Positions 818-41,497 of a DNA stretch of 64,000 nt are shown piece by piece. The notes beneath the pieces are model-generated. The model did no database searches. It saw nothing but the letters and a program-made list of their open reading frames with translations, and had not been told where the DNA came from. Origin of the DNA: Pirellulales bacterium. Lineage in GTDB: Bacteria > Planctomycetota > Planctomycetia > Pirellulales > PALSA-1355. The stretch spans positions 704,001-768,000 of the forward strand of contig CAVTBU010000005.1 in assembly GCA_963733035.1 (NCBI GenBank), written 5' to 3'. The translations under genes were made by a program, and so were the position numbers. Position 1 is the stretch's first letter. Each line of letters starts with the position of its first letter.

Positions 818-1873
818 ATGTCGGGAGTGGGGTTCGGAAGCTTGCTGATAATCGCGGCGGCGGATGCGTCGTTGCGCGATCTGTCCATCTTTGAGCCTGC
901 CTCCTATTCCGCCAAGTCGATTGTCACGCTTTCGCTGCTGGCCTTTGTCGTCGCGGCGCTGATCTTCCTGGTGGTTGAGGGGATCCTCTTTTACACGGTT
1001 TTCCGCTTCCGGCACCGGGGCCGGGCGGGCGGTTCGCATACGGCGCAGTCCCAGACCAGCGAGCCGCCGCAGGTCTACGGCAGCAACCCGATCGAAATCG
1101 CCTGGACGGTTGCGCCGACGATGATCGTCTTCTTTCTTGTGCTGGTGACGGCCCGCACATTGTGGGAAGTCAACGCCGCACCGCCAAGCACGGAAACTGA
1201 AGCGGGCATGCTGGAAGTGACCGTGATCGGCCGGCAGTGGTGGTGGGAGTACCAATACAAATCGTATGACGGCCGGGAGCTCAAGTTCATCACGGCCAAC
1301 GAATTGCACATTCCGGTCAGCGATGATGATCAGGTACGTCCGACCAAGCTGACGCTCGAATCGGCCGACGTCTGCCATAGTTTTTGGGTGCCGCGGCTGG
1401 ATGGCAAGATGGACGTCATTCCCGGCCTGCACAACACGCTCTGGCTGCAGACGAAGGAAACGGGGCTCTTCCTTGGCCAATGCGCCGAGTATTGCGGCAC
1501 GCAGCATGCACACATGTTGTTGCGGGTCGTCGTGGAAACGCCTGAGTCGTTTGAGAACTGGCTCGCCAACCAGGCGCAAACGGCCGTCGAAGATCCGGCG
1601 GTCGCCGAAGGAAGGCAGGTGTTTCTTTCTGAATCATGCGTCAACTGCCATCGCATTCGCGGCACGCCGGCCGCGGGCAACTATGCACCGGACCTGACGC
1701 ACTTGATGAGCCGCCAAACGATCGCCGCCGGCATCATCGCCCTTGACGCCCACACGCTGGAGCGTTGGGTTCACGATCCGCAGGATATCAAGCCTGGTTG
1801 CCTGATGCCGGCATTTGGCCTGGACCGGAAAAAGGAAGACCTGATTGTTCGCTACTTGCTAACCCTGCATTGA
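818..1873 (+). CDS. ctaC: Cytochrome c oxidase subunit II with C-terminal cytochrome c domain (caa3-type)
   Basis: Two TM helices, EIAWTVAP, GRQWWW, CuA ligands HSFW...CAEYCGTQHAHM, C-terminal CVNCH...MP. ATG 818 preferred over TTG 761. Confidence 0.96.
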   Translation: MSGVGFGSLLIIAAADASLRDLSIFEPASYSAKSIVTLSLLAFVVAALIFLVVEGILFYTVFRFRHRGRAGGSHTAQSQTSEPPQVYGSNPIEIAWTVAPTMIVFFLVLVTARTLWEVNAAPPSTETEAGMLEVTVIGRQWWWEYQYKSYDGRELKFITANELHIPVSDDDQVRPTKLTLESADVCHSFWVPRLDGKMDVIPGLHNTLWLQTKETGLFLGQCAEYCGTQHAHMLLRVVVETPESFENWLANQAQTAVEDPAVAEGRQVFLSESCVNCHRIRGTPAAGNYAPDLTHLMSRQTIAAGIIALDAHTLERWVHDPQDIKPGCLMPAFGLDRKKEDLIVRYLLTLH

Positions 1874-1894
1874 ACGAGAAGACGCGGAACCGAT

Positions 1895-3555
1895 ATGGCT
1901 GTTGTCGACCACAAAGTTGATCTGCAAAGTGCGGCCGAAGATGCACGGTTGGGGTTACCGTCGATCTTGCACGAGTGGACGACAACGGTTGATCACAAGA
2001 AGCTCGGCGTCATGTACGTGCTGATGGCGGTCGTGTTTCTGGTGATCGGCGGCATCGAGGCCCTGCTCATGCGTTTGCAGCTTTGGAACGCGAATGCCGA
2101 CCTGGTGGGCCCCGACTTGTTCAACCAACTGTTCACGATGCACGGCACGACGATGGTCTTCTTCGTCGGGATGCCAATTCTGATCGGCATGGGCAACTAC
2201 CTGGTACCGCTGATGATCGGCGCGCGCGACATGGCTTTTCCACGGCTGAATGCCCTGGGACTGTGGACGACGCTGTTCGGTGGCATTCTCGTATATTGCA
2301 GCTTCGCCACCGGGGGCGCGCCCGCGTTGGGGTGGTTCGCCTACGCGCCGCTCACCGAAACGACGTTTGCCCGCAGCGCGGCCACGGACTTTTGGGCGCT
2401 GGGCCTAATTACCACCGGCGTCGGCACGCTGGCCGCCGCGGTGAACTTCGTGGCCACGATCCTGGGCATGCGCGCCCCGGCATGACGCTTCGCAAGCTCC
2501 CGTTTTTCACCTGGACGATGCTGTGGACGAGCTTCCAGATTTTACTGGCCATTCCGCCGTTGACGGCCGGCCTGGTGATGGTGTTGTTCGATCGTGAATT
2601 GGGGGCCCACTTTTTCGACGTGCAAAACGGCGGCTCGGCGATTTTCTGGCAGCATTTGTTTTGGTTCTTCGGACATCCGGAAGTTTATATCCTGATTCTG
2701 CCGGTGTTCGGCATGGTCTCGGAGATTATTCCGGTCTTCTCGCGAAAAGTGCTGTTCGGTTATGAGTTCATGGCGGCGGCCACGATGGCGATTGCCTTTA
2801 TCAGCCTCGGCGTGTGGGCGCACCACATGTTCTGCGTCGGCATGAGCCGCACGGTCGATCTGTTTTTCGTCGTCGCCAGTCTTCTCGTATCCGTTCCCAC
2901 GGGCATCAAGTTCTTCAATTGGCTGGCCACGATGTTCGGCGGGCGGTTGTGGTTTGCCTCGCCGATGTTGTTTTCGTTTGGTTTTTTGTCGATGTTTCTG
3001 ATTGGCGGGTTGACCGGCATCATGCTGGCGCTGGCGCCGTTCGACTTCCAACTGTCCGACAGCTACTTCGTGGTGGGGCATTTTCACTGGGTGTTGATTG
3101 GCGGCACGCTGTTCGGCACGTTTGCCGGCATTCACTATTGGTATCCGAAGGTGACCGGCCGCATGCTTTCGGAACGGCTGGCGCGGTGGCAATTCTGGCT
3201 GCTCTATATCGGCTTCTTTCTGACGTTTGGCCCAATGCACGTTTCTGGCATGCTGGGCATGCCGCGGCGGATCTTCACGTATGAACCGGATCGGGCCTGG
3301 GAATTGTGGAACCAGATGGCCACGGTCGGAGCGTTCATTCAGGCCCCCAGCTACTTGATCTTTGTCTACAACCTGCTGGTGTCCTTAAAAAACGGCACGC
3401 CCGCTGGTGACGATCCCTGGGACGCATGGACGCTCGAATGGACGACCAGTTCACCGCCGCCGGGCTACAACTTTGAATCCATTCCCACCGTGCACAGCCG
3501 GCGTCCGCTGTGGGACCTAAAACACCCGGACGACCCCGACTGGCAATACGAATAG
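1895..3555 (+). CDS. ctaD: Cytochrome c oxidase subunit I, A1-type (frameshift at ~2475-2478, probably a sequencing error)
   Basis: DHKKLG, MHGTTM, DMAFPRLN in the first ORF; WFFGHPEVY, WAHHM, PTGIK, HFH, GMPRR in the second. Adding one C to CCCC restores MRAPGMT. Confidence 0.96.
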
Positions 3556-3565
3556 CGAAGCGACC

Positions 3566-4195
3566 GTGAATAACCACGCCGAGATTTATGACACGCAGGG
3601 CGGCCCGGTGACGAACTTGCCGGTTCCGCCGGATGTCGTGCCAGAACATAACTTGAGTGCGCCCGAATGGGGAATGCTCAGCTTCCTCCTGTCGGAAGTC
3701 GCATTCTTCACCACGCTTATTGTCGCCTACGTGATGTTCAAAGGCACCGACACGGTGGGGCCGACACCCGGCGAAGTGCTCTCGCTCCATTTGGTAATCG
3801 GCACGACGGCCTGTCTGCTGTCGAGCAGCGTCACGGTCCATTTCGCCACGCACGCGCTTACCGGTGGACATGCGACGCGATTCCGGCTGCTGTGGACCGC
3901 CACGATTGCGCTGGGCGTCGCGTTTTTGCTTGGCACGGGGTACGAATGGTACGGTCTGATTGTTAACGACCATTTGACAATCAGCCGCAACCTGTTTGGC
4001 ACGACGTTCTATACGCTCGTAGGCTTTCACGCCCTGCACGTCTCGGTGGGCGTGCTCATGATGTCCATCATTCTCGTACTCGCGCTCGTGCGTCAGATTG
4101 GCCCGCAGCACACATTGGCGCCCCATCTAGTTTCCTGGTATTGGCATTTTGTCGACGCCGTCTGGATCGTTGTCTTCAGCGTGGTGTACTTGTAA
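3566..4195 (+). CDS. ctaE: Heme-copper oxidase subunit III (short form)
   Basis: FLLSEVAFF, TxxLLSSS, GFHALHV, WYWHFVDAVW motifs. Confidence 0.95.
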   Translation: MNNHAEIYDTQGGPVTNLPVPPDVVPEHNLSAPEWGMLSFLLSEVAFFTTLIVAYVMFKGTDTVGPTPGEVLSLHLVIGTTACLLSSSVTVHFATHALTGGHATRFRLLWTATIALGVAFLLGTGYEWYGLIVNDHLTISRNLFGTTFYTLVGFHALHVSVGVLMMSIILVLALVRQIGPQHTLAPHLVSWYWHFVDAVWIVVFSVVYL

Positions 4196-4211: not shown

Positions 4212-5484
4212 ATGGCCGACTCTCCCCCCACCACCGAAGTTCATGAAGCCGGCGTCGAGATGCCGCAATCAACGGCCGCGCCACTCGTGCTTGCACTCGG
4301 CATTTCGCTGTTGGCGGTCGGTTGGGCCACGAATGTTACGTTCGTGATCGTGGGGGCAGTGCTGTTCGTCGCCGGACTAGGCTCTTGGATTTCCCACCTG
4401 CTGCCCGGTCGGGGGCACGCAATCGAACCGCTGGCCGAACCCGCGCGGCGTGCCCACGCTGCTGAACCAAAAGTTGGCACGGTGGACCGACTGCGCCGCG
4501 GCATGCCAGGGCACCGACTGCGATTGCCAGAAAAAATGCATCCCATTTCGGCGGGCGTGAAGGGGGGCATCGTCGGTGGGATCGTGATGCCGTTGCCGGC
4601 CATGATCTACGGCGTCATGAGCGGGCACGGCATCTGGCTGCCAATCAACCTGCTGGCGGGCATGGTTCTGCCGGGAGTCGAGCGGCTGAGCCTGGAACAA
4701 TTGGACCGCTTTGACCCGACACTATTGACCGTGGGTGCCGTGATTCACGCGACCATATCCGTGACGTTTGGGTTGTTGTATGGCGTTTTGTTACCGACAT
4801 TGCCAACCATCTCGCGGCCGCTGGCTTGGGGCGCTATTGATGCCACTGTTGTGGACGGCCGCCAGCTTCTTGGCCACCACCATGGTCGATCCGACCGTTC
4901 GCGGCCTGATCGACTGGCCCTACTTCGTATTGTCGCAGTTTGTTTTTGGCGTTGTGGCTGCTTTGGTAGTCATGCTGTTCGATCCACAGCGACACGTTCT
5001 AGGAGGCCTCGTCGGTGGCATCGTGGGAGGCGTGTTGATGGTGGTACCCGCCATGCTGTGGGGCTATCTATCAGGTCACGGCATCTGGTATCCGGTGAAC
5101 TTACTGGTCGTCATGGCGTTGCCCCAGGGAGATGCGCTGTCGGTCGACGATATCGAACAGTATCATGCCAACTGGTTCGCCACGGCGACGGTCCTGCACG
5201 CCACGCTGTCGATCGGTTTCGGCCTGCTGTATGGCCTATTGCTGCGGCGATTGCCGCGCATTCCAGGGCCCTTCGCCTGGGGCGCGATGATGATGCCGCT
5301 GCTCTGGACCGCGACGAGCTACGCCATGATGGGCGTTGTCAATCCGGTGCTACAAGAGCGGGTCGATTGGCCGTGGTTCGTCGTGTCGCAGTTTGTCTAT
5401 GGTCTGGCGGTGGCGATTGTCGTCGTGCGATCCGAGCAGGTGTTCATCGCGCCTGCCGGCCAAGCAGCGAAAGGCGAACGATGA
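4212..5484 (+). CDS. Polytopic membrane protein with two internal repeats (frameshift at ~4831-4834)
   Basis: The N-part (frame of 4212) and C-part (frame of 4768) join to give two copies of GGIVGG..P(A)M..G..SGHGIW.P.NLL...HAT.S..FGLLYG.LL...AWGA..MPLLWTA...DWP.FV.SQFV.G. Stop overlaps the next ATG. Confidence 0.8.
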
Positions 5485-12434: not shown

Positions 12435-13151
12435 CTACGGCCGCTGGTCGCGCGGCTGGCCCCCCCGAGCGAACTCGTTCAACCCAGCAGACGGGTTTGA
12501 CGCCAGATTCAGATTCAGGCTTCGCAGGAGATGAAAGTCCTGGCCATGAATGAATTGGCAGCCAATTAGATAGTTGGGGCCGACGCAGAGCGACCAGCGA
12601 ACCTTTAGTCGCAGCGTTTCTTCGCCATTTGGCGTTTGGACCAGCGTGTGAATACTGCGCGTTTGTTCCGGCGCCTGGCTGGTCATCAAACATAGACCAC
12701 CCTCGGAAAGGTCGCGAATCATTCCTGGTATGCGCGGTGCTTCACGCGACCAGCGTATGTCGACGGGAATTCGCGTTTGAAACCGTATGGCCGATCGCCG
12801 CTCGAGCAGGCCGCTGGCTACCAGTTCGGCAAATCGTGTTTCGCTCATTCGCTTGTCGAACTCGCACTCAATCAACCAGTCGCCCGTCGGGTTGAGCCGG
12901 GCCCAGGCGATTTCGCCGAAAATTACCAGCGTGCGCGTGAGCTTTGAGCTGACCAATCTCAGTCGACAACGACAGGGTAGTTCCGGCGGTCCGGCGACCA
13001 GCAATTTGGCACTGGCCGCCGAAATCTCCCGCAACTCCGCGCCGCAGTCGGCCGGCAGTTCTCCATCGCTGGGAGAGAGAATCATGGCATCGACCAACTC
13101 TGGATGAACCAAAGGATAGGAGCGGTCGCACCTGGTAGACGCTATCGACAT
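12435..13151 (-). CDS. PilZ domain-containing protein (degenerate N-terminal PilZ + canonical C-terminal PilZ)
   Basis: ERRSAIRF (RxxxR) and RDLSEGG (DxSxxG), V.W...GCQF; the first half has RSYP...EISAAS...WAR...ECEF. Start uncertain. Confidence 0.8.
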   Translation of the reverse strand: MSIASTRCDRSYPLVHPELVDAMILSPSDGELPADCGAELREISAASAKLLVAGPPELPCRCRLRLVSSKLTRTLVIFGEIAWARLNPTGDWLIECEFDKRMSETRFAELVASGLLERRSAIRFQTRIPVDIRWSREAPRIPGMIRDLSEGGLCLMTSQAPEQTRSIHTLVQTPNGEETLRLKVRWSLCVGPNYLIGCQFIHGQDFHLLRSLNLNLASNPSAGLNEFARGGQPRDQRP

Positions 13152-13594
13152 GGTCAAACTCGTGGTTTCAATTGGGAGGCTGAACTCCCAACTGTAGGTC
13201 GAGACGGCGCGTTGTGGGAGCAAAAAAACCAGTACGGACCTGGACAATCGAGGGCGTGACAACGCGCGGCATGTACACGGCAATGCTGCGCATGCCCTAA
13301 AGTCTGCCTTGCCAGCCGGTAAAATCGCTACGATTTTCCTACGTGCACTGCCATCGCCGACTTACGTGACCCGCATTCGTCGGCCGCTCGCGAAAGTCGT
13401 AATTGCTTGCCCGCGCATACCAATTGGCAATGCCGTCAGATAGCACACGCAATCAAGGCGATAAACGCAAGTTACTTGCGAATTTCATGGACAGCTAGCA
13501 TCGAATTTAATCATAATCTACGTGACTTGTCGGGTTTGGCTTCCGTGGCGCGAAGCAACAAGTCCCCCTCTCTCTTCCGCGGCAATTGCACGTC

Positions 13595-16229
13595 ATGGCG
13601 AACGTGGTCGATCCGAATTCCTGGCGCATGATTCCACTCCCAGATCCCCAACGTACCGGGCCGACCGCCGACCCTATCGGCTCCGAGGTCCAGGCACCGG
13701 AAAGTTTGGCCGCCTCGCGGCAATCAACCATCGACGTGTTGACCACTGTTCTCGAGGGATCCTTCGCGGCCCCTGGTGACCGAGTTGTGTGGAACCTGTC
13801 GGAACGTCTGTCGAATTTAGCCGCAGACGGGAAGCAGCTGCGTGTCGATTCACAACATGAGATTGCCGCGCCAGCCGCCCAATTTCCAGAGCAACCTGGC
13901 GTCGATTCCGAAGCGCCTGCACCACGGCCGTGGCTGGTGCTGGTGGAAAATGCGAGCGGCGTCCAAACGGTTACGCAGGCCGAGCGACTGCGCAGCGATC
14001 GATCTTGAATCGCAACTTCTCGTCGTACTTTGCGATGTGGACGATTCTCAGCTACGACACGTTGACACGCACGAAGCAAGTGGGGCCGCGCGTGTCGCGG
14101 ACCGGTTGCAATGCGATTTTGTAGGCCCATTGGACGCGGCCAACCCGGGCCAGCTGAGCGAGGCCTTGGCGCGTGTCAAGCAGAGTGGTCGGTCGACCGT
14201 TTTATATGTTGACGCACGGACTTTGCAGGCCCCAGCCCCTCATTTCGCACCGGTTGACCGAGCGTCAGACGGCGAATCGACGGTCGGCGCTGGAGAGCGG
14301 CTGCGGGATATCGCGTCGGGGGCTCTGGCAACGCTGGCCGCCAACGATCGGCGAATTGCCGTGTATTCAGCAGACGACGATTCGCTGTTCAAGACGACAG
14401 CCGAATCCAGTATTTCGCAAGAATTGCCGCTCGATGAGCGCGTGCCGATGGCCATCGACCAATGCGCCTCCCTCGCCGCGCGGGGCGGCAAACCGTTTCT
14501 CTTTATGTCGGCAGACGAAGTGCAGAACCATCTCGGTCGTATTCGTCGCGAGATTTGCCTCGATCGACGTGGGGTGACGCTCGTCATCGAGGCACGCCGT
14601 GCTGGCGCGGTGTCCGAAGTCATCGGTTCGGCGAGTCTGTCGGGCATTCGCCACTTGCCAGACATTTCATTGTTGGCACCTAAGGACGGCACCGAGCTTT
14701 GTCAGATGCTTACTTGGTGCGTGGATCAAGCTGACCCGGCGGTGATTTGGCTTTCCGAACAGTGGGAGCCACCGGTTCACTGGCCGCCAGGTGACGAAAT
14801 TGTCCGCGGTCGCGCCGAGCGACTGGGAAAAGGGACGGACGTGACGATTATCGCGTGGGGCTCCCAGGCCGCTGCGGCCGCGATTGCAGCGGAGAATCTG
14901 GCACAGCAGGGCATCGTTGCCACGGTTGTCAACGCCCGCTTCGCGCAACCACTCGATGTAGAGACCTTGGCCCGCGCTTGCTCCGACGCGGCCTACTTGG
15001 TGATTGTGGATGATGCTCCGGCCGGGGGCGGCTTTGCGGGATGGGTCTCGGAGCAGCTTGTCCGACGAGGAGTCGTGCAGAGTATTACGATCGTTTCCTC
15101 TGCGAATCTCTCGGAACGCTCCCATTCCGACGACCCGCATGACCAGTTGGCGTCGCACATTGTTGATCGCTGCCGTTGGCTGAGCGAGCCGATGTTCGGC
15201 CAACGGGTTGATCCGGAAATGCGGGTCGTGTCGGTGGAGAGGCCCGTATTTCCGAGCTACCCGGTAGCGCGGATTTTCGAGACGGCAGGGAGTTCGGACG
15301 TTCAGCAGCAAATCCTTGCGCAGCAATTCAGTCCGTTCATCCAGCGTTGGGTCGAGCGATACGCTCTGGTCGGCAGCCGTGACGTATATTTGTGGCGTTG
15401 GTGTTTGCACGGACTGGGGTTGACGACGCTGTCGTGCGTCCCGGTGGCGTTGCGCCATGATTTGTGCGATACGAAGCTGCTGGCGGTGATGTATGGCGTC
15501 ATGCTAGACGACGTGGCCGACCAGGCGGGAGGCGACGAATTTCTAGCGGCCCTGATCGGCATCATCGCCGGTGAGTCGGAGCGCAATTTTGGCGCGTTCT
15601 CCAGTGAACAGCAAGAGTACGCTCGGTTTACATGCGATTTGTGGGACACGTTTCGAGGTCGTCTGGAATGCTCTCCCTGCTACCAGGAATACGCAGAGCT
15701 GTTGGACTACGACCATCGGCAGATCCTCAACACGTTTGCGTACTCTTGCATGGTGAACAAGCATCCGGCGCTGCTCAACGTGCAAGAACACGACATGTAC
15801 ATGCCACACAACATGCAAATGATGAGTTTTGCCACGATGGACCTGATGTGCTCGCCGAAGTTCGATCGAAACGAACTCGGGAGATTGCGAGAGGTGATCT
15901 GGCACGCGCAGAGCATGGGGCGTATCGGCAACCTCGTCAGCACGTGGCAGCGAGAGATTGCGGATCGAGATTTTACCAGTGGAGTATTCGCCCGAGCATT
16001 GCGGCAAGGCGACCTGACGCCGGACGACCTGCGTTCGGCATCGGCCGAGTCGATCGAAGCGGCCGTTCGGCGTGGCGGACACGAACAATATTTCTTCCAG
16101 AAATGGGAGACGCACCGGCGTTGCATCCTGGGGTTGGCTCCGGACATCCATAGCGTCGACGTGGGTCAGTTGCTAGGGGCGCTGACCCAGCTGATGGACA
16201 TGGAGATCCATAGTCGCGGTTTGAAATAG
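13595..16229 (+). CDS. Degenerate DXP-synthase (DXS)-like protein fused to a class I terpene/isoprenoid synthase-like domain (frameshift at ~13990-13993)
   Basis: DXS-collinear segments: GDRVVW, LLVVLCD, FVGPLDA, LAARGGKP, LAPKDGTEL, GTDVTIIAWG, VVNARFAQPLD, GGGFAG. The C-terminal helical domain has DDVAD (15507-15521) and RIGNLVSTWQRE (~15921-15956). Restoring GC at 13990 joins the ORFs (RLRAAIDLESQ; ~878 aa). Confidence 0.8.
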
Positions 16230-16252
16230 CGCGTTTTTGCGCCCGGCACTTG

Positions 16253-19386
<3,134 letters not shown>

Positions 19387-19390
<4 letters not shown>

Positions 19391-20556
19391 AGCGAGAAAT
19401 ACTCTACGTCGACGATGAAATGGAGAATCTGGTCGTTTTTGAGGCCACGTTCGAGGACTATTTCGACGTCGTTACCGCCTCGAGCGGAGCCGAAGCGTTG
19501 GCCCTGCTCGAGCAGCGCTCATTCCCCGTCGTCGTCGCCGATCAGCGAATGCCCAAGATGAGCGGTGCCGAGCTATTCGAAGTCATGCGGCGTAAGTTTC
19601 CGCACACGAAACGGATCATGCTTACCGGGTACGCCGATTCCAAGGCAATGCTTAGTGCCATCAACCAGGGCCAGGTGTTCTATTTCATCAAGAAGCCTTG
19701 GGAGCAGGATGACGTTTTCTCAATTCTGCTGCGGGCCATCGAAGCCTACGACATGTCGCTGTCGAACGTGGTGTTGCAGGATCGACTGGTTGCCGCCGAC
19801 CGCTGCGCCATGCTGGGTCGCTCGGCCGCACGGCTCGCTCACGAAATGGGCAACCAGCTATGTATGTTGCCGCTGCTCGAACTGATTGAGGACGAATACA
19901 GCGATCACGAAGACCTCGTGCGGATGGCGTCGTTCGCGCGATCAACCTACGATCGGCTCGTGCAGATCGTCGAAGAAGTAAAATCCTTCGTTCGTTTCGA
20001 ACGCGAGGAAATGGTTACTCAGCCGCTGGAGTTGTCCGAGGCCGTGCACGAACTGGTGGAGTTCCTGCGCTTTGAACGAAGTCTGCCGATGGACCGCTTG
20101 ACGGTCAATGTGCACGGCGAGAGCTGGGTGCGTGCCAATCGAATCAAGATTCAGCAAGTGCTGATCAATTTATTGAAGAACGCCGAGTTCGCGACACGCA
20201 ATCGCGACGATGGACACATCACGCTCACCTTGTCCAACGAGGGAGAGCGGGCCATCCTCACGGTCGCGGACAACGGATGCGGGATGACGGCTGAGGTGGA
20301 ACAGCGAATCTGGGAACCGTTTTTCACGACCAAGGGTGAGCAGGGCACGGGGCTTGGCCTCGACGTCGCCAAATCGATCATCGAGGGACACGACGGCAGC
20401 ATCGATTGCACCACCGAACCCGGCGCCGGCACTTCGTTCACGATTCGGTTGCCGCGCATCGAACCCACCGATCCCGCCGCGAGCCTACAGCTTCCCATCG
20501 AGGGAACGGCACTCCACGATTTTTCGTCGCTTTCCACCCCGATGTCGCTCAACTAA
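19387..20556 (+). CDS. Hybrid response regulator/histidine kinase (REC-HisKA-HATPase)
   Basis: YVDDE, ADQRMP, LTGY, KPW; AHEMGNQL; NLLKNA, DNGCG, FFTTK, GTGLGL. ATGA overlap with the upstream kinase. Confidence 0.95.
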
Positions 20557-20603
20557 ACGCCCAGCCGGACTCCCGGCCCAATGGAGACGGAGATCGTTTG
20601 ACC

Positions 20604-21539
20604 ATGAAGATACTACTGGTTAGCCCTCGCGGTTTTTGTGCGGGCGTCAACATGGCGATCGATGCGCTCGAACAGGCCATCAAAATGTTCGGTACACCGC
20701 TCTACGTGTTCCATGAAATCGTACACAACCGCCATGTCGTGCAGCGGTTCAAGGACAAGGGCGTCGTGTTCGTCGATCACGTGCATGAGGTTCCGCGCGG
20801 CAGCCACCTGATGTACAGCGCCCACGGCATTTCTCCCGCCGTACGAGAACAGGCCCGCGAGCGCGAATTACAAGTCGTCGATGCCACGTGCCCACTCGTC
20901 CGCAAGGTGCATCTCGAAGCGATTCGCTTTGCGCGCTTGGGTTACTCCATCGTCCTGGTTGGCCATCGCGATCACGATGAGGTCGTCGGTACCTTGGGCG
21001 AGGCCCCCGGCCAGATCGTACTCGTGGAAACCGTCGACGACGTCGATCGCCTGCACGTTGCGGATCCCAACAAAGTTGCCTACCTCACGCAAACGACTCT
21101 CAGCGTCGACGACGCGGGCGTTATCATTGATCGACTACGAGCAAGATTTCCCAATTGCGTCGGTTCGCCGAAAGAAGACATTTGCTATGCCACGCAGAAC
21201 CGGCAGGAGGCCCTTAAGGCTGGCGTCGAACGGGCCGACGTCGTCCTGGTTTTTGGCAGCAAGAACAGTTCCAACAGCATCCGTTTGACGGAAGTGGCCG
21301 CCGAGTTCGGCCGTCCGACACATCTGGTTGACAGTGTCGAGGAAATCGATCGCGATTGGTTTCGTGGCGCTGAAACGGTGCTGATCACCGCGGGCGCCAG
21401 CGCGCCGGAGGATCTGGTAATCGCCTGTGTGGATCTGCTGACCCAAGAATTCAATGCGACCGTCGAACGCCTGGCCGTGCGCGATGAGAATGTGGAGTTT
21501 CCCCTCCCGTACGAGATTCGCCCGCTGTCGGCCGGTTGA
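20604..21539 (+). CDS. ispH: 4-hydroxy-3-methylbut-2-enyl diphosphate reductase
   Basis: PRGFCAGV, HEIVHN, SAHG, DATCPLV, HDEV, QTTLS, ICYATQNRQ, SSNS, TAGASAPE; all three Fe-S cysteines present; RBS GGAG. Confidence 0.98.
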   Translation: MKILLVSPRGFCAGVNMAIDALEQAIKMFGTPLYVFHEIVHNRHVVQRFKDKGVVFVDHVHEVPRGSHLMYSAHGISPAVREQARERELQVVDATCPLVRKVHLEAIRFARLGYSIVLVGHRDHDEVVGTLGEAPGQIVLVETVDDVDRLHVADPNKVAYLTQTTLSVDDAGVIIDRLRARFPNCVGSPKEDICYATQNRQEALKAGVERADVVLVFGSKNSSNSIRLTEVAAEFGRPTHLVDSVEEIDRDWFRGAETVLITAGASAPEDLVIACVDLLTQEFNATVERLAVRDENVEFPLPYEIRPLSAG

Positions 21540-21785
21540 TCTTTCGGCGGTCGCTTTGCCGCTCGGTTTCGTGCCGGTCGTCCCAGCCGCCATTCGGTGT
21601 ACAAGAAGATCCTCAACTTGCGAGCTCGTGATTTTCGAGCGAATCCTTCCAGTCGGCACGTGATGCCGTTCGATTAAGTCTATACGGAGACTGGACTTAA
21701 GATCGACTTTTCCGGTTAGGCAAGCTCGGCAAAGCCACTTCCGGCCGAGGCCACGGTTTCGTTCTTTAGGGCGATGGAGCGCTTC

Positions 21786-23054
21786 ATGAAGCTGCGTCGA
21801 ATTCTTGCCTGTTCGGGTCTGCTACTGCTGCTGGTTGGCCCCACGTTGGTCCGCGCCGATGGCCTAATTCTGGACGGCGTCGGCCCAATCTCGAGCGGTC
21901 GTGGCGGTACGAATCAGGCTTTTTCCGACAACGCTGCGATCATCCTCGACAACCCGGCCGGCATGATGAACGTCGCTGGCAACGGCTTGGCCGAAGCGGG
22001 CGTCGATACCGTGATTCCCGTCGTCAACTACTCCGACCCGTACAATGATGTCCAAAGCAAGATTCGCCCGCTGCCGGTTCCGAACCTGGGCTTGATCCGA
22101 AAAAGCGCCGACGGACAGTGGGCCTGGGGCATCGGTGCATTCATGCCAGCGGGCTTCGGAGCGAGCTACGGTGTGCTAAACAATCCCGTCACGGGATCCA
22201 ACCTGCTTCGGTCGCAAGGCGGCCAGGCGAGGTTGTTGCCCGCCCTGAGCTTTCGTGCGACCGAACGTCTCTCACTGGGGATCTCCGTGGGAGTTGGGCT
22301 CAGCTATGCTTCGCTCGACGGCCCGTTGTACTTGCAGTCCGGGGCACTGGCTGGCGCGCCCTCGATTATCGACGTCGAGGGGACAGGTGTCGCGCCGATC
22401 GGTTCGGTCGGCATGCAATACCAGTTGACCGAGAAGACAAGGATCGGTGCCACGTACACCGAACAAGCCAACTATTGGTGCCATGGCGGAAGCAACGCGA
22501 CGATTATCACGGGCTTGGGCCCTCTGCAAAGCCACTTCAATAGCCAATTCAGGATCCAATGGCCGCGAAGCGTAGCCTTCGGTCTGAAGCACGACTTTTG
22601 CCCACATCGCCACTTCTCGGCCGATGTGATTTGGTACGACTGGGCACACGCATTCAACAACATTCAACTGTTATTCTACGACGCGACGAACCCGTTGCTC
22701 GCCGGCCAGATTAGCCAGACGCTGCCGCTAAACTGGACCGATAGCGTTTCGATGCGGCTGGGATACCAGACGGAGTTTACGGAAGTCGATACCTTCCGCT
22801 GCGGCTATGTTTATCACTCCAGCCCTTCGCCAAACTCGACGTTGAATCCCTACATTGACGGCATCCTGCAGAATGCATTCAGCTTGGGCTATAGCCGCAC
22901 TTTCTCCCGCGCAATCTTCAACGTGGCATACCAATATCACTTCAGCAATACCCGCCACGTTGTCAACAGCGGGTTGATCGGCGGGCAATTTGATAATACG
23001 ACCATGCGAGCTCAAGCACATTTCGCGATGCTGAGCTTGCTGGTGCCGTATTAG
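21786..23054 (+). CDS. OmpP1/FadL/TodX-family outer-membrane channel for hydrophobic compounds
   Basis: Signal peptide; hatch-like N-terminus GRGGT...DNAA...DNPAGM; amphipathic beta-strand pattern; aromatic C-terminal residue. Confidence 0.88.
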   Translation: MKLRRILACSGLLLLLVGPTLVRADGLILDGVGPISSGRGGTNQAFSDNAAIILDNPAGMMNVAGNGLAEAGVDTVIPVVNYSDPYNDVQSKIRPLPVPNLGLIRKSADGQWAWGIGAFMPAGFGASYGVLNNPVTGSNLLRSQGGQARLLPALSFRATERLSLGISVGVGLSYASLDGPLYLQSGALAGAPSIIDVEGTGVAPIGSVGMQYQLTEKTRIGATYTEQANYWCHGGSNATIITGLGPLQSHFNSQFRIQWPRSVAFGLKHDFCPHRHFSADVIWYDWAHAFNNIQLLFYDATNPLLAGQISQTLPLNWTDSVSMRLGYQTEFTEVDTFRCGYVYHSSPSPNSTLNPYIDGILQNAFSLGYSRTFSRAIFNVAYQYHFSNTRHVVNSGLIGGQFDNTTMRAQAHFAMLSLLVPY

Positions 23055-40561: not shown

Positions 40562-41345
40562 CTAGGCGGAAGACCCGGCGGGGTGTCTAGTCACCGGCGT
40601 GATCACGGGTCGGCTCGGCGGCAATCGGCGGCCGCGATACACGACAACCGGCGAGCCGTCGGCAAGGAAAGCTGACACCGGCGGAGCGGTTAGTGCCTCA
40701 GCGAACGATGCGCCGTAAAGGGTCGCGACCTCGCCAGTAAAGCATGCCGTGCGAGCGGGCCACAACTTCCAGCGCCGATGTTCGACCTGGTACTCCACGG
40801 TCGCGCGTCCTGGCCCGCCCGAGTAGCCCCAGTAGTGTTCGATGATGAATTCGTCGAGCGAGTCGGGCGAGGCCACGTGACCGTCTCCGTCGGCGCAGCA
40901 TTACGAGCCGGCACTCGCGGCCGGACCAGCGCCAACAGTAGCTGGCCTCAAAGGCCCCGCCGCTTGCACACTCGATCGCGTGCCCCATGGGTACGGTGGC
41001 GTAGTTCTCGCCGTACAGGCTCCGAGCGACCCAGGACACGGCCCGGCGCGGCACCAGCTCGCGCAAAAAACAGACTCCGCGCCGCCAGCCGTCATTCACG
41101 CGCCGCCGAATATAGAACCGCAGGTTCACTTCCTCAAAGTTGCGGTGGAACGGAATCGCGTAGCCGCAAACGCGGGTGTCGCGAAACTCAAACCCGACCA
41201 GGCTGATCAGGGCGCGGCCTTGCCAGAGGTCCAATTCGGTGCCCCACGGCACATGGGGCGCGAGGATGTCGGAGTCGATCTCGTAGTTGACGACCACCAG
41301 GTTGCGCCACTGGGCCGTAAGAAATGCAGTCGGATTGCGCTCCAT
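40562..41345 (-). CDS. DUF2071/YqjF family protein (frameshift at ~40893-40896)
   Basis: FLTAQWRNL..VNY, FEEVNLRFY, LYGENY in the first ORF; FIIEHYWGY, YQVEH..W, SAFLADGS in the second. Confidence 0.85.
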
Positions 41346-41497
41346 CGTGAACCTCCGTCGAGTTACCAACCGCAAACGCCCAAAGTCGTTCACATCTTCG
41401 GCTTTGCTCGAATTGCTGGGGTATTAAACCGCAGGCTGCCGACGCGGACCACACCACTCCCAAACCCACGCCGAAAAATTTCTTCTGGCCTTGTAGC

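Follow-up and report, generated by a model that had tools for sequence, protein, structure and literature searches.

A soil planctomycete gene that seems to join a catalytically dead DXS copy to a probable terpene synthase

The window analyzed here comprises 64,000 nucleotides from a Pirellulales bacterium, a soil planctomycete (assembly GCA_963733035.1, contig CAVTBU010000005.1, positions 704,001 to 768,000 of the forward strand). At 13595–16229 of its plus strand lies a gene of ~878 codons, with an ATG start at 13595 and a single frame break. Judging from the sequence, this gene seems to fuse two parts, a copy of DXS (an enzyme of the isoprenoid pathway) that has lost its catalysis and a terpene synthase that is probably functional. 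The gene is seen as two overlapping plus-strand open reading frames (ORFs), 13586–14008 (140 amino acids) and 13842–16229 (795 amino acids). Nine full-length relatives (811–911 amino acids, 43–67% identical) track frame 1 to ‘...RLR’ and frame 2 from ‘AIDLES...’; because these relatives run through both ORFs, the two belong to a single gene read in two frames. In the public annotation of the source genome, the gene call begins within the fusion gene (P0003, 759 amino acids). The product is a cytoplasmic protein of about 878 residues, with no hydrophobic segments in the hydropathy profile. Relatives of only 40–60% identity agree almost completely in the N-terminal 16-residue peptide, MANVVDPNSWRMIPLP, after which the sequence becomes highly variable; this peptide could be a short binding or targeting motif.

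A protein search (5.8 billion proteins) yielded 33 matches at E ≤ 0.001, of which 13 make up one family (P0003–P0015, E ≤ 9e-102) and the remaining 20 comprise true DXS as well as proteins of the transketolase type or E1-beta (E ≥ 3.7e-16). The N-terminal ~560 residues of the fusion protein descend from DXS. When the family profile is aligned with that of 12 true DXS using hhalign, the match has a probability of 100 and an E value of 5.5e-40 over 491 columns with 21% identity, and extends over positions 49–539 of the family and 47–633 (of 642) of DXS, that is, across all three domains in the DXS order. In a profile search of the Protein Data Bank (PDB) sequences, DXS comes first (6xxg, 7.8e-31; 2o1x, 2.3e-30), above transketolase and E1-beta, and the best Foldseek match of the AlphaFold2 model of P0005, a relative, is DXS as well (6ouv_B, E 2.6e-21, 592 columns). 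This model is good in domains II and III but mediocre as a whole, with a predicted local distance difference test score (pLDDT) of 64 and a predicted template modeling score (pTM) of 0.42. The curated models mostly fail, as expected because the copy is degenerate: TIGR00204 (DXS, EC 2.2.1.7) scores 78.3 bits over profile positions 363–578 and does not reach its cut-off of 465.95, Transketolase_C is the sole pass in Pfam, Transket_pyr stays below the threshold (Table 1), DXP_synthase_N of Pfam does not match the window protein, and the first 140 residues (P0001) have no match in Pfam or NCBIfam. About 96 DXS columns, mostly in domain I, are unpartnered, and the model of P0005 is weak there (pLDDT 25–70), so the scaffold is collinear with DXS but trimmed. 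The initial annotation described a full-length three-domain DXS scaffold; the three-domain collinearity is borne out by hhalign and Foldseek, whereas ‘full-length’ holds only approximately, given the shrunken domain I. Overall, the window protein shares with DXS the domain order and the fold, along with the motifs of domain III, and differs from it in lacking the motifs for catalysis and for binding of thiamine diphosphate (ThDP), in its shortened domain I, in scoring far below the curated cut-off and in being fused to a terpene synthase.

The extent of the catalytic loss can be gleaned from a MAFFT alignment of the window protein (with X at the break), the genome's own DXS, 11 other DXS, P0047 (see below) and family members. 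The 12 DXS share 112 invariant columns, of which the window protein keeps 37, distributed unevenly over domains I (11 of 56), II (9 of 33) and III (17 of 23); ten other family members keep 31–42. Relative to the genome's own DXS, WDTGHQ is replaced by WNLSER, GDG by ENA, NDN by CDV, GPVDGH by GPLDAA, GICESH by DERVPM and YSTFLQR by SADEVQN, and the DGPTHH stretch is unalignable, so that every motif replacement previously listed for this gene is seen in the alignment. The catalytic and substrate residues, including the cofactor-activating Glu of IAEQH, the His of DVGHQ, YSTFLQR and DGPTHH, are all replaced. Thirteen catalytic or binding positions were checked (H43, H74, D147, N174, N176, H256, E370, H372, Y392, R398, R420, D427 and H431 in the numbering of the genome's own DXS), and 12 of these are replaced in all 11 family members, with H372 retained in one of the 11. 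The ThDP/Mg motif GDG...NDN reads ENA...CDV in the window, and its residues D147, N174 and N176 belong to the positions replaced throughout. Thus, by its sequence, the DXS-like part has lost ThDP binding and catalysis. A true dxs is present elsewhere in the genome, on another contig (686.5 bits, all motifs present). A known likeness comes from plants, in which, according to PMC10675008, class 3 DXS-like proteins (SlDXS3, AtDXS3) are likewise DXS homologs without DXS activity that are predicted not to bind the cofactor, SlDXS3 failing in complementation; in contrast to the fusion, these are stand-alone plastid proteins of independent origin, unfused and far less decayed.

The frame break lies in the context ...CGACTGCGCAGCG... 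of the window sequence. A contig of 641 bases from run X3 (another study, ~93–94% identical) has GC inserted behind 13989, turning GCGC into GCGCGC and restoring the frame. In the near-identical run X1, the contigs end at 13901 and restart at 14031, leaving the break uncovered. A search of 151 genomes of the order detected a frame open across the whole profile in four genomes of the family to which the window belongs, G060, G141 and the two searched genomes of the same genus, G090 and G017. When the window was compared with the syntenic stretches of the latter two, four of the 18 G090 ORFs with a window ortholog corresponded to genes split between two frames: the fusion gene; the COX1 gene (1877–3552, plus strand; break near 2476–2479, where a C/G run lacks one base and Pfam COX1 positions 1–149 and 149–436 fall in separate frames, which looks like an assembly indel); a 423-amino-acid gene (4236–5472, plus strand; split near 4835); and a DUF2071 gene (40622–41372, minus strand; split near 40905), the last two being split relative to both genomes. 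The kinase gene was considered as a fifth multi-frame gene and rejected, the match being to a paralog and the gene having no break. The resulting rate of about one break per 11 kb, with a respiratory core gene also affected, suggests assembly indels, and the break at ~13990 is very probably an assembly error. A programmed frameshift was ruled out because the relatives read straight through.

Purifying selection acts on the DXS-like part, less tightly than on the synthase, and the part is retained rather than decaying. For the pair L007 and L008 (dS 0.12), the ratio of non-synonymous to synonymous rates (dN/dS) is 0.22 in the DXS-like part (505 codons), compared with 0.09 in the synthase domain (308 codons) and 0.66 in the linker (34 codons); the other four pairs are saturated (dS 1–3 or undefined). 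Between the window and the X3 relative, 38 differences are listed in 13640–14175, with 17 synonymous and 19 non-synonymous codons, the non-synonymous changes amounting to about one-third of the neutral expectation; the stretch compared is the least conserved one, and another 106 differences lie outside the listing. The earlier claims that the domain is retained and that its frame is open save for one probable error therefore fit the dN/dS over 505 codons, the intact frames of the X3 relative and of the same-genus genomes, and the similar breaks in other genes of the window. With homology to an enzyme, loss of the catalytic residues and purifying selection, this is a pseudoenzyme domain, and the initial annotation of a DXS-derived pseudo-enzyme is supported by the 37 remaining invariants and the replacement of all motifs.

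The last 315 residues have no match in Pfam even at E 10, and the cut-offs of PF19086 and PF03936 are not reached. The AlphaFold2 model of this domain, built from 47 aligned sequences, shows an alpha-helical class I fold with high confidence (pLDDT 95.9, pTM 0.93). Foldseek finds 36 PDB matches at E ≤ 0.001, the best being bacterial class I terpene synthases, among them 7zrn (E 7.6e-5), 9kgb (TM 0.64, the highest) and pentalenene, avermitilol and T-muurolol synthases. The window carries LDDVAD and NLVSTWQRE (N-x3-T-x3-E), corresponding to DDxxD and NSE/DTE, which we take to be the two metal-binding motifs of class I terpene synthases; across the 47 sequences, D76, D77, D80, N217, T221 and E225 show either no variation or a conservation of at least 90%. 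The Atlas neighbors of the domain are ‘terpene synthase family’ clusters. Because fold, metal motifs and neighbors all match class I terpene synthases, the fused synthase domain is probably a working enzyme. It shares the full-length fold and both motifs with bacterial enzymes of this class (7zrn, 9kgb, and pentalenene synthase 9c7k) and differs from them in the low identity (9–17%), in the lack of a Pfam match for the window copy and in its large N-terminal modules.

A profile search with the synthase domain retrieves 750 representatives at E ≤ 0.001 (434 at ≤ 1e-30), and the domain is C-terminal in nearly all of the 150 representatives listed. In a survey of 172 pooled sequences, of which 160 have a near-complete domain, the N-terminal part is a degenerate DXS-like module in 72, is absent in 48 (stand-alone synthases) and is other or unrecognized in 21; PilZ (8), near-intact DXS (5), cNMP-binding (4), RibB (DHBP synthase; 1) and FAD/geranylgeranyl-reductase-like (1) modules account for the rest. 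The ‘other’ class may hide more such domains because the Pfam scan covered just 43 proteins. The variants fused to PilZ (REC-PilZ in one case), cNMP-binding, RibB and FAD/geranylgeranyl-reductase-like partners are P0104, P0114, P0117, P0126, P0135, P0144, P0146 and P0174; P0116, P0133, P0138 and P0155; P0044; and P0170. A RibB gene also lies divergently beside the stand-alone synthase of locus L034. One family member, P0178, passes PF19086 (34.6 vs 23.7 bits).

A second class of fusions in other Planctomycetota, the near-intact forms (P0047/P0184; L021, L028, L029), shares with the window gene the two-part architecture, the synthase family and the type of cluster (with a HAMP kinase, IspH and a REC-HATPase protein), and differs from it in keeping 108 of the 112 DXS invariants and all motifs save the His of DVGHQ. 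The protein P0047 (915 amino acids) passes all three DXS domains of Pfam; 13 members, each on a contig of its own, make up its 90% cluster, one being named by its source as DXS of a Phycisphaerae bacterium, and six metagenome loci are 60–96% identical to it and share all its motifs. In all seven near-intact sequences (P0047 and the six loci), the His of DVGHQ is Asn and every other DXS motif is kept, so that these may be ThDP enzymes of altered reaction rather than plain DXS. The six loci are L021 (7001–9748), L029 (7001–9748), L028 (1650–4394), L026, L024 and L027. In L026, the intact-type DXS and synthase parts are in overlapping ORFs of different frames (1274–3076 and 3019–4059), the cause being a natural split or else a frameshift introduced in sequencing. 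The loci L029 and L041, counted once, have identical ORF maps and scores and come from different ranges and orientations of one 100-kb metagenome contig, which may reflect an inverted duplication or an assembly artifact. A search with P0047 at E ≤ 1e-150 found no match in 401 genomes across the phylum; the threshold is probably too strict, and the sample may lack the fusion. In a FastTree phylogeny of the synthase domain, the intact-DXS clade is supported (96), and a 78-row clade (support 95) holds 64 of the 72 degenerate forms.

The neighborhood of the gene (Table 1) is largely conserved: the order of the PilZ gene (minus strand), fusion, hybrid kinase, REC-HATPase and LytB/IspH genes is common to the window, L006, L007, L009 and L010, with the REC-HATPase protein evident in L007, L009 and the window itself and represented by a matching ORF without a Pfam match in L006 and L010. 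A kinase follows the synthase gene in all seven genome loci examined; the same kinase type follows the stand-alone synthase of L013, and a different kinase follows the truncated fusion of L011. Among 22 distinct metagenome loci with the synthase domain, this kinase lies downstream, in the same orientation, in 17, four of the other five end within 660 bases of the gene, and LytB is present in 11. A FadL-type gene is also located directly upstream of the truncated fusion in L011. The start of the hybrid kinase (16250–17050, plus strand) has about six hydrophobic segments and no large extracytoplasmic domain, a layout that suits sensing within the membrane. Because PilZ is fused to the synthase in paralogs, the PilZ neighbor may be a c-di-GMP-dependent partner. 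The kinase and the REC-HATPase protein in the cluster point to a possible signaling role of the terpene or of its synthesis.

Table 1. Features of the fusion gene and its neighborhood (positions in the window)
Feature	Position	Strand	Content and evidence
PilZ-domain protein, divergent upstream	12435..13283	-	Pfam
Fusion gene, first frame	13595..13993	+	start codon, N-terminal peptide, variable stretch, start of domain I (WNLSER for WD[VT]GHQ; VENA for GDG); translation, alignment, motif table
Conserved N-terminal peptide MANVVDPNSWRMIPLP	13595-13642	+	alignment with relatives
Frame break	13988..13997	+	window sequence CTGCGCAGCG; ~93%-identical contig has GC extra behind 13989
Rest of degenerate domain I (PP-like)	13995..14303	+	LLVVLCDVDDS replaces NDN motif; FVGPLDAA replaces GPVDGH
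Degenerate domain II (Pyr-like)	14304..14807	+	Transket_pyr E 0.014, 15.5 vs 27 bits; TIGR00204 match over 14448-15086; catalytic Glu, YSTFLQR, DGPTHH all replaced
Domain III (Transketolase_C)	14808..15071	+	PF02780 2.6e-19, 69.8 vs 25.9 bits; VNARFAQPLD, GGFAG; best-kept part
Domain III end and variable linker to synthase domain	15072..15281	+	linker dN/dS 0.66; pLDDT <50 in relative's model
Class I terpene-synthase-like domain, then stop codon	15282..16229	+	LDDVAD, NLVSTWQRE; AlphaFold2, Foldseek
Hybrid histidine kinase	16250..19390	+	~6 hydrophobic segments, HAMP, HisKA, HATPase, REC, second HATPase-like; Pfam, hydropathy
REC-HATPase protein	19387..20556	+	Pfam
LytB/IspH	20580..21533	+	Pfam 297 bits; second of two genome copies
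FadL/TodX-type outer-membrane channel for hydrophobic compounds	21774..23054	+	PF03349, 7.6e-31

What the retained pseudoenzyme domain does is suggested by the prediction of a complex of two DXS-like parts of P0005, which scores 0.72 compared with 0.00 for the best control, with a contact agreement of at least 92% and a partner pLDDT of at least 71; 20 of 30 solved pairs and one of 23 single chains attained the mark applied. The predicted interface maps to DXS positions 397–405, 435–442 and 565–590, part of it supplied by domain II, and thus the predicted dimer of the degenerate part would use the same surface as DXS itself; according to PMC10203381, this is the region of DXS monomer interaction. 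The DXS-like part may accordingly form a self-dimer, and on balance it is probable that it serves as a retained dimerizing scaffold or regulatory module of the terpene synthase. Selection keeps it as a folded module, which would hold the protein as a symmetric dimer through the surface of domains II and III where DXS monomers once met; this dimer would act as a scaffold, and perhaps a gate, for the class I terpene synthase at the C-terminus, the module probably being a relic of a precursor-supply fusion. As for its history, a working ThDP enzyme was probably joined to the synthase first, as in the forms that persist in other Planctomycetota; that fusion would have arisen within a cluster with its own IspH, resembling a precursor-supply arrangement, and the separate dxs of the genome would then have made the catalysis of the fused copy dispensable in the lineage of the window. 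A single fusion followed by decay would be the parsimonious course.

Several observations weigh against a dimerizing scaffold. Because DXS dimers are solved, the passing prediction may reflect likeness to these dimers, as learned by the model, rather than binding, and it was made on P0005, a 60%-identical relative, instead of the window's own protein. The dN/dS estimate comes from a single unsaturated pair, the verdict that the domain is dead is drawn from sequence alone, and the near-identical contigs leave the break uncovered, with a real recent frameshift in the strain as a less likely alternative. In the tree, the intact-DXS clade stands beside, not inside, the large degenerate clade, with the fork left without resolution. 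Many family members, the stand-alone synthases (48 of 160), have no N-terminal module, and a purely structural role fails to explain the retention because class I synthases generally need no scaffold of 560 residues. In paralogs, this position is taken by ligand-binding regulatory domains such as PilZ and cNMP-binding, which would favor a sensor role: a metabolite, for example IPP, DMAPP or a sugar phosphate, would bind to the dead DXS domain, alter the conformation or dimer state of this domain and so tune the synthase to the flux through the methylerythritol phosphate (MEP) pathway. Such domains (PilZ in eight proteins, cNMP-binding in four, REC-PilZ in one), if the analogy holds, make sensing via new residues more plausible, and charged residues conserved within the family (VE.A, LSLDE, VEAR) have indeed appeared at the old active site; the second IspH in the cluster points the same way. 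The initial annotation took it as established that isopentenyl diphosphate (IPP) as well as dimethylallyl diphosphate (DMAPP) inhibit DXS at the ThDP site. This is contested: according to PMC10203381, both bind away from the cofactor site, likely at the monomer contact (docking at H122, Q397, R398 and F435), and monomerization follows. A shift of real DXS from dimer to monomer, on a surface matching the predicted interface of the dead domain, would also suit a sensor. However, none of the 11 family members has retained R398 or F435, four of them, including the window, still have Q397, and the His taken as the counterpart of H122 has no aligned partner in the family. Sensing of prenyl diphosphates at the old ThDP site, as initially proposed, finds no support, given the loss of GDG...NDN and of the other checked positions, H372 in one of 11 members excepted. 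Thus, neither the cofactor site nor the proposed allosteric site is recognizably kept because their residues are mostly replaced, no tool result points to a ligand, and a sensor appears unlikely.

Still less probable is a heterodimer, in which the dead domain pairs with the active DXS of the genome and regulates or recruits it. The predicted self-interface coincides with the DXS dimer surface, and tomato DXS isoforms co-precipitate, as stated in PMC10675008, but the interface residues have diverged from DXS, the true dxs is on another contig and the self-dimer is predicted with confidence. There is also only a slight chance that the DXS-like part is a decaying remnant. In that case, the break would be genuine and the DXS-like sequence junk DNA, with translation from an internal start yielding just the synthase part (759–795 codons). 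The source assembly does have a broken frame, the public gene call starts inside the fusion gene and near-identical contigs do not span the break; against these stand the low dN/dS of the DXS-like part and the intact frames of relatives, the match of both flanks of the break to family-conserved residues with no further stop, and the splitting of four of 18 compared window genes, including COX1, which points to assembly indels. Hardly any weight is left for a re-tooled enzyme that catalyzes a new, ThDP-independent reaction. The acidic and basic residues conserved specifically in the family at the old active-site positions would agree with such an activity, but domain I has shrunk and shows little order in the model, no known catalytic motif is present, and conservation is lowest at the old active site (11/56 and 9/33), compared with 17/23 in the non-catalytic domain III.

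A broader and quite speculative proposal, to which we assign a low probability, is that the DXS domain is a metabolite-operated dimer switch, with the dimer-to-monomer shift on IPP and DMAPP inherited from DXS, that would set the synthase by precursor level, and that the terpene is a signal read in the membrane by the adjacent six-helix hybrid kinase. The cluster of synthase, kinase, REC-HATPase protein, own IspH, FadL channel and PilZ protein would then be a terpene signaling circuit, so far undescribed and widespread in Planctomycetota. No relevant paper on DXS–terpene synthase fusions or on kinase- or PilZ-linked terpene synthases was found in the literature, and the available part of PMC10663253 does not cover fusions of this kind.

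The synthase family is large and uncharted, with 750 representative clusters and a window copy that falls in no Pfam model, and the plain naming of intact-type fusions as DXS by their sources is an annotation issue. Within one phylum and one type of cluster, the DXS module ranges from near-intact through degenerate and truncated to absent, a natural series of an enzyme becoming a pseudoenzyme domain. The near-constant pairing of the synthase with a membrane histidine kinase and the frequent fusions to second-messenger receptors suggest regulated or signaling terpene synthesis, which is poorly known in bacteria.

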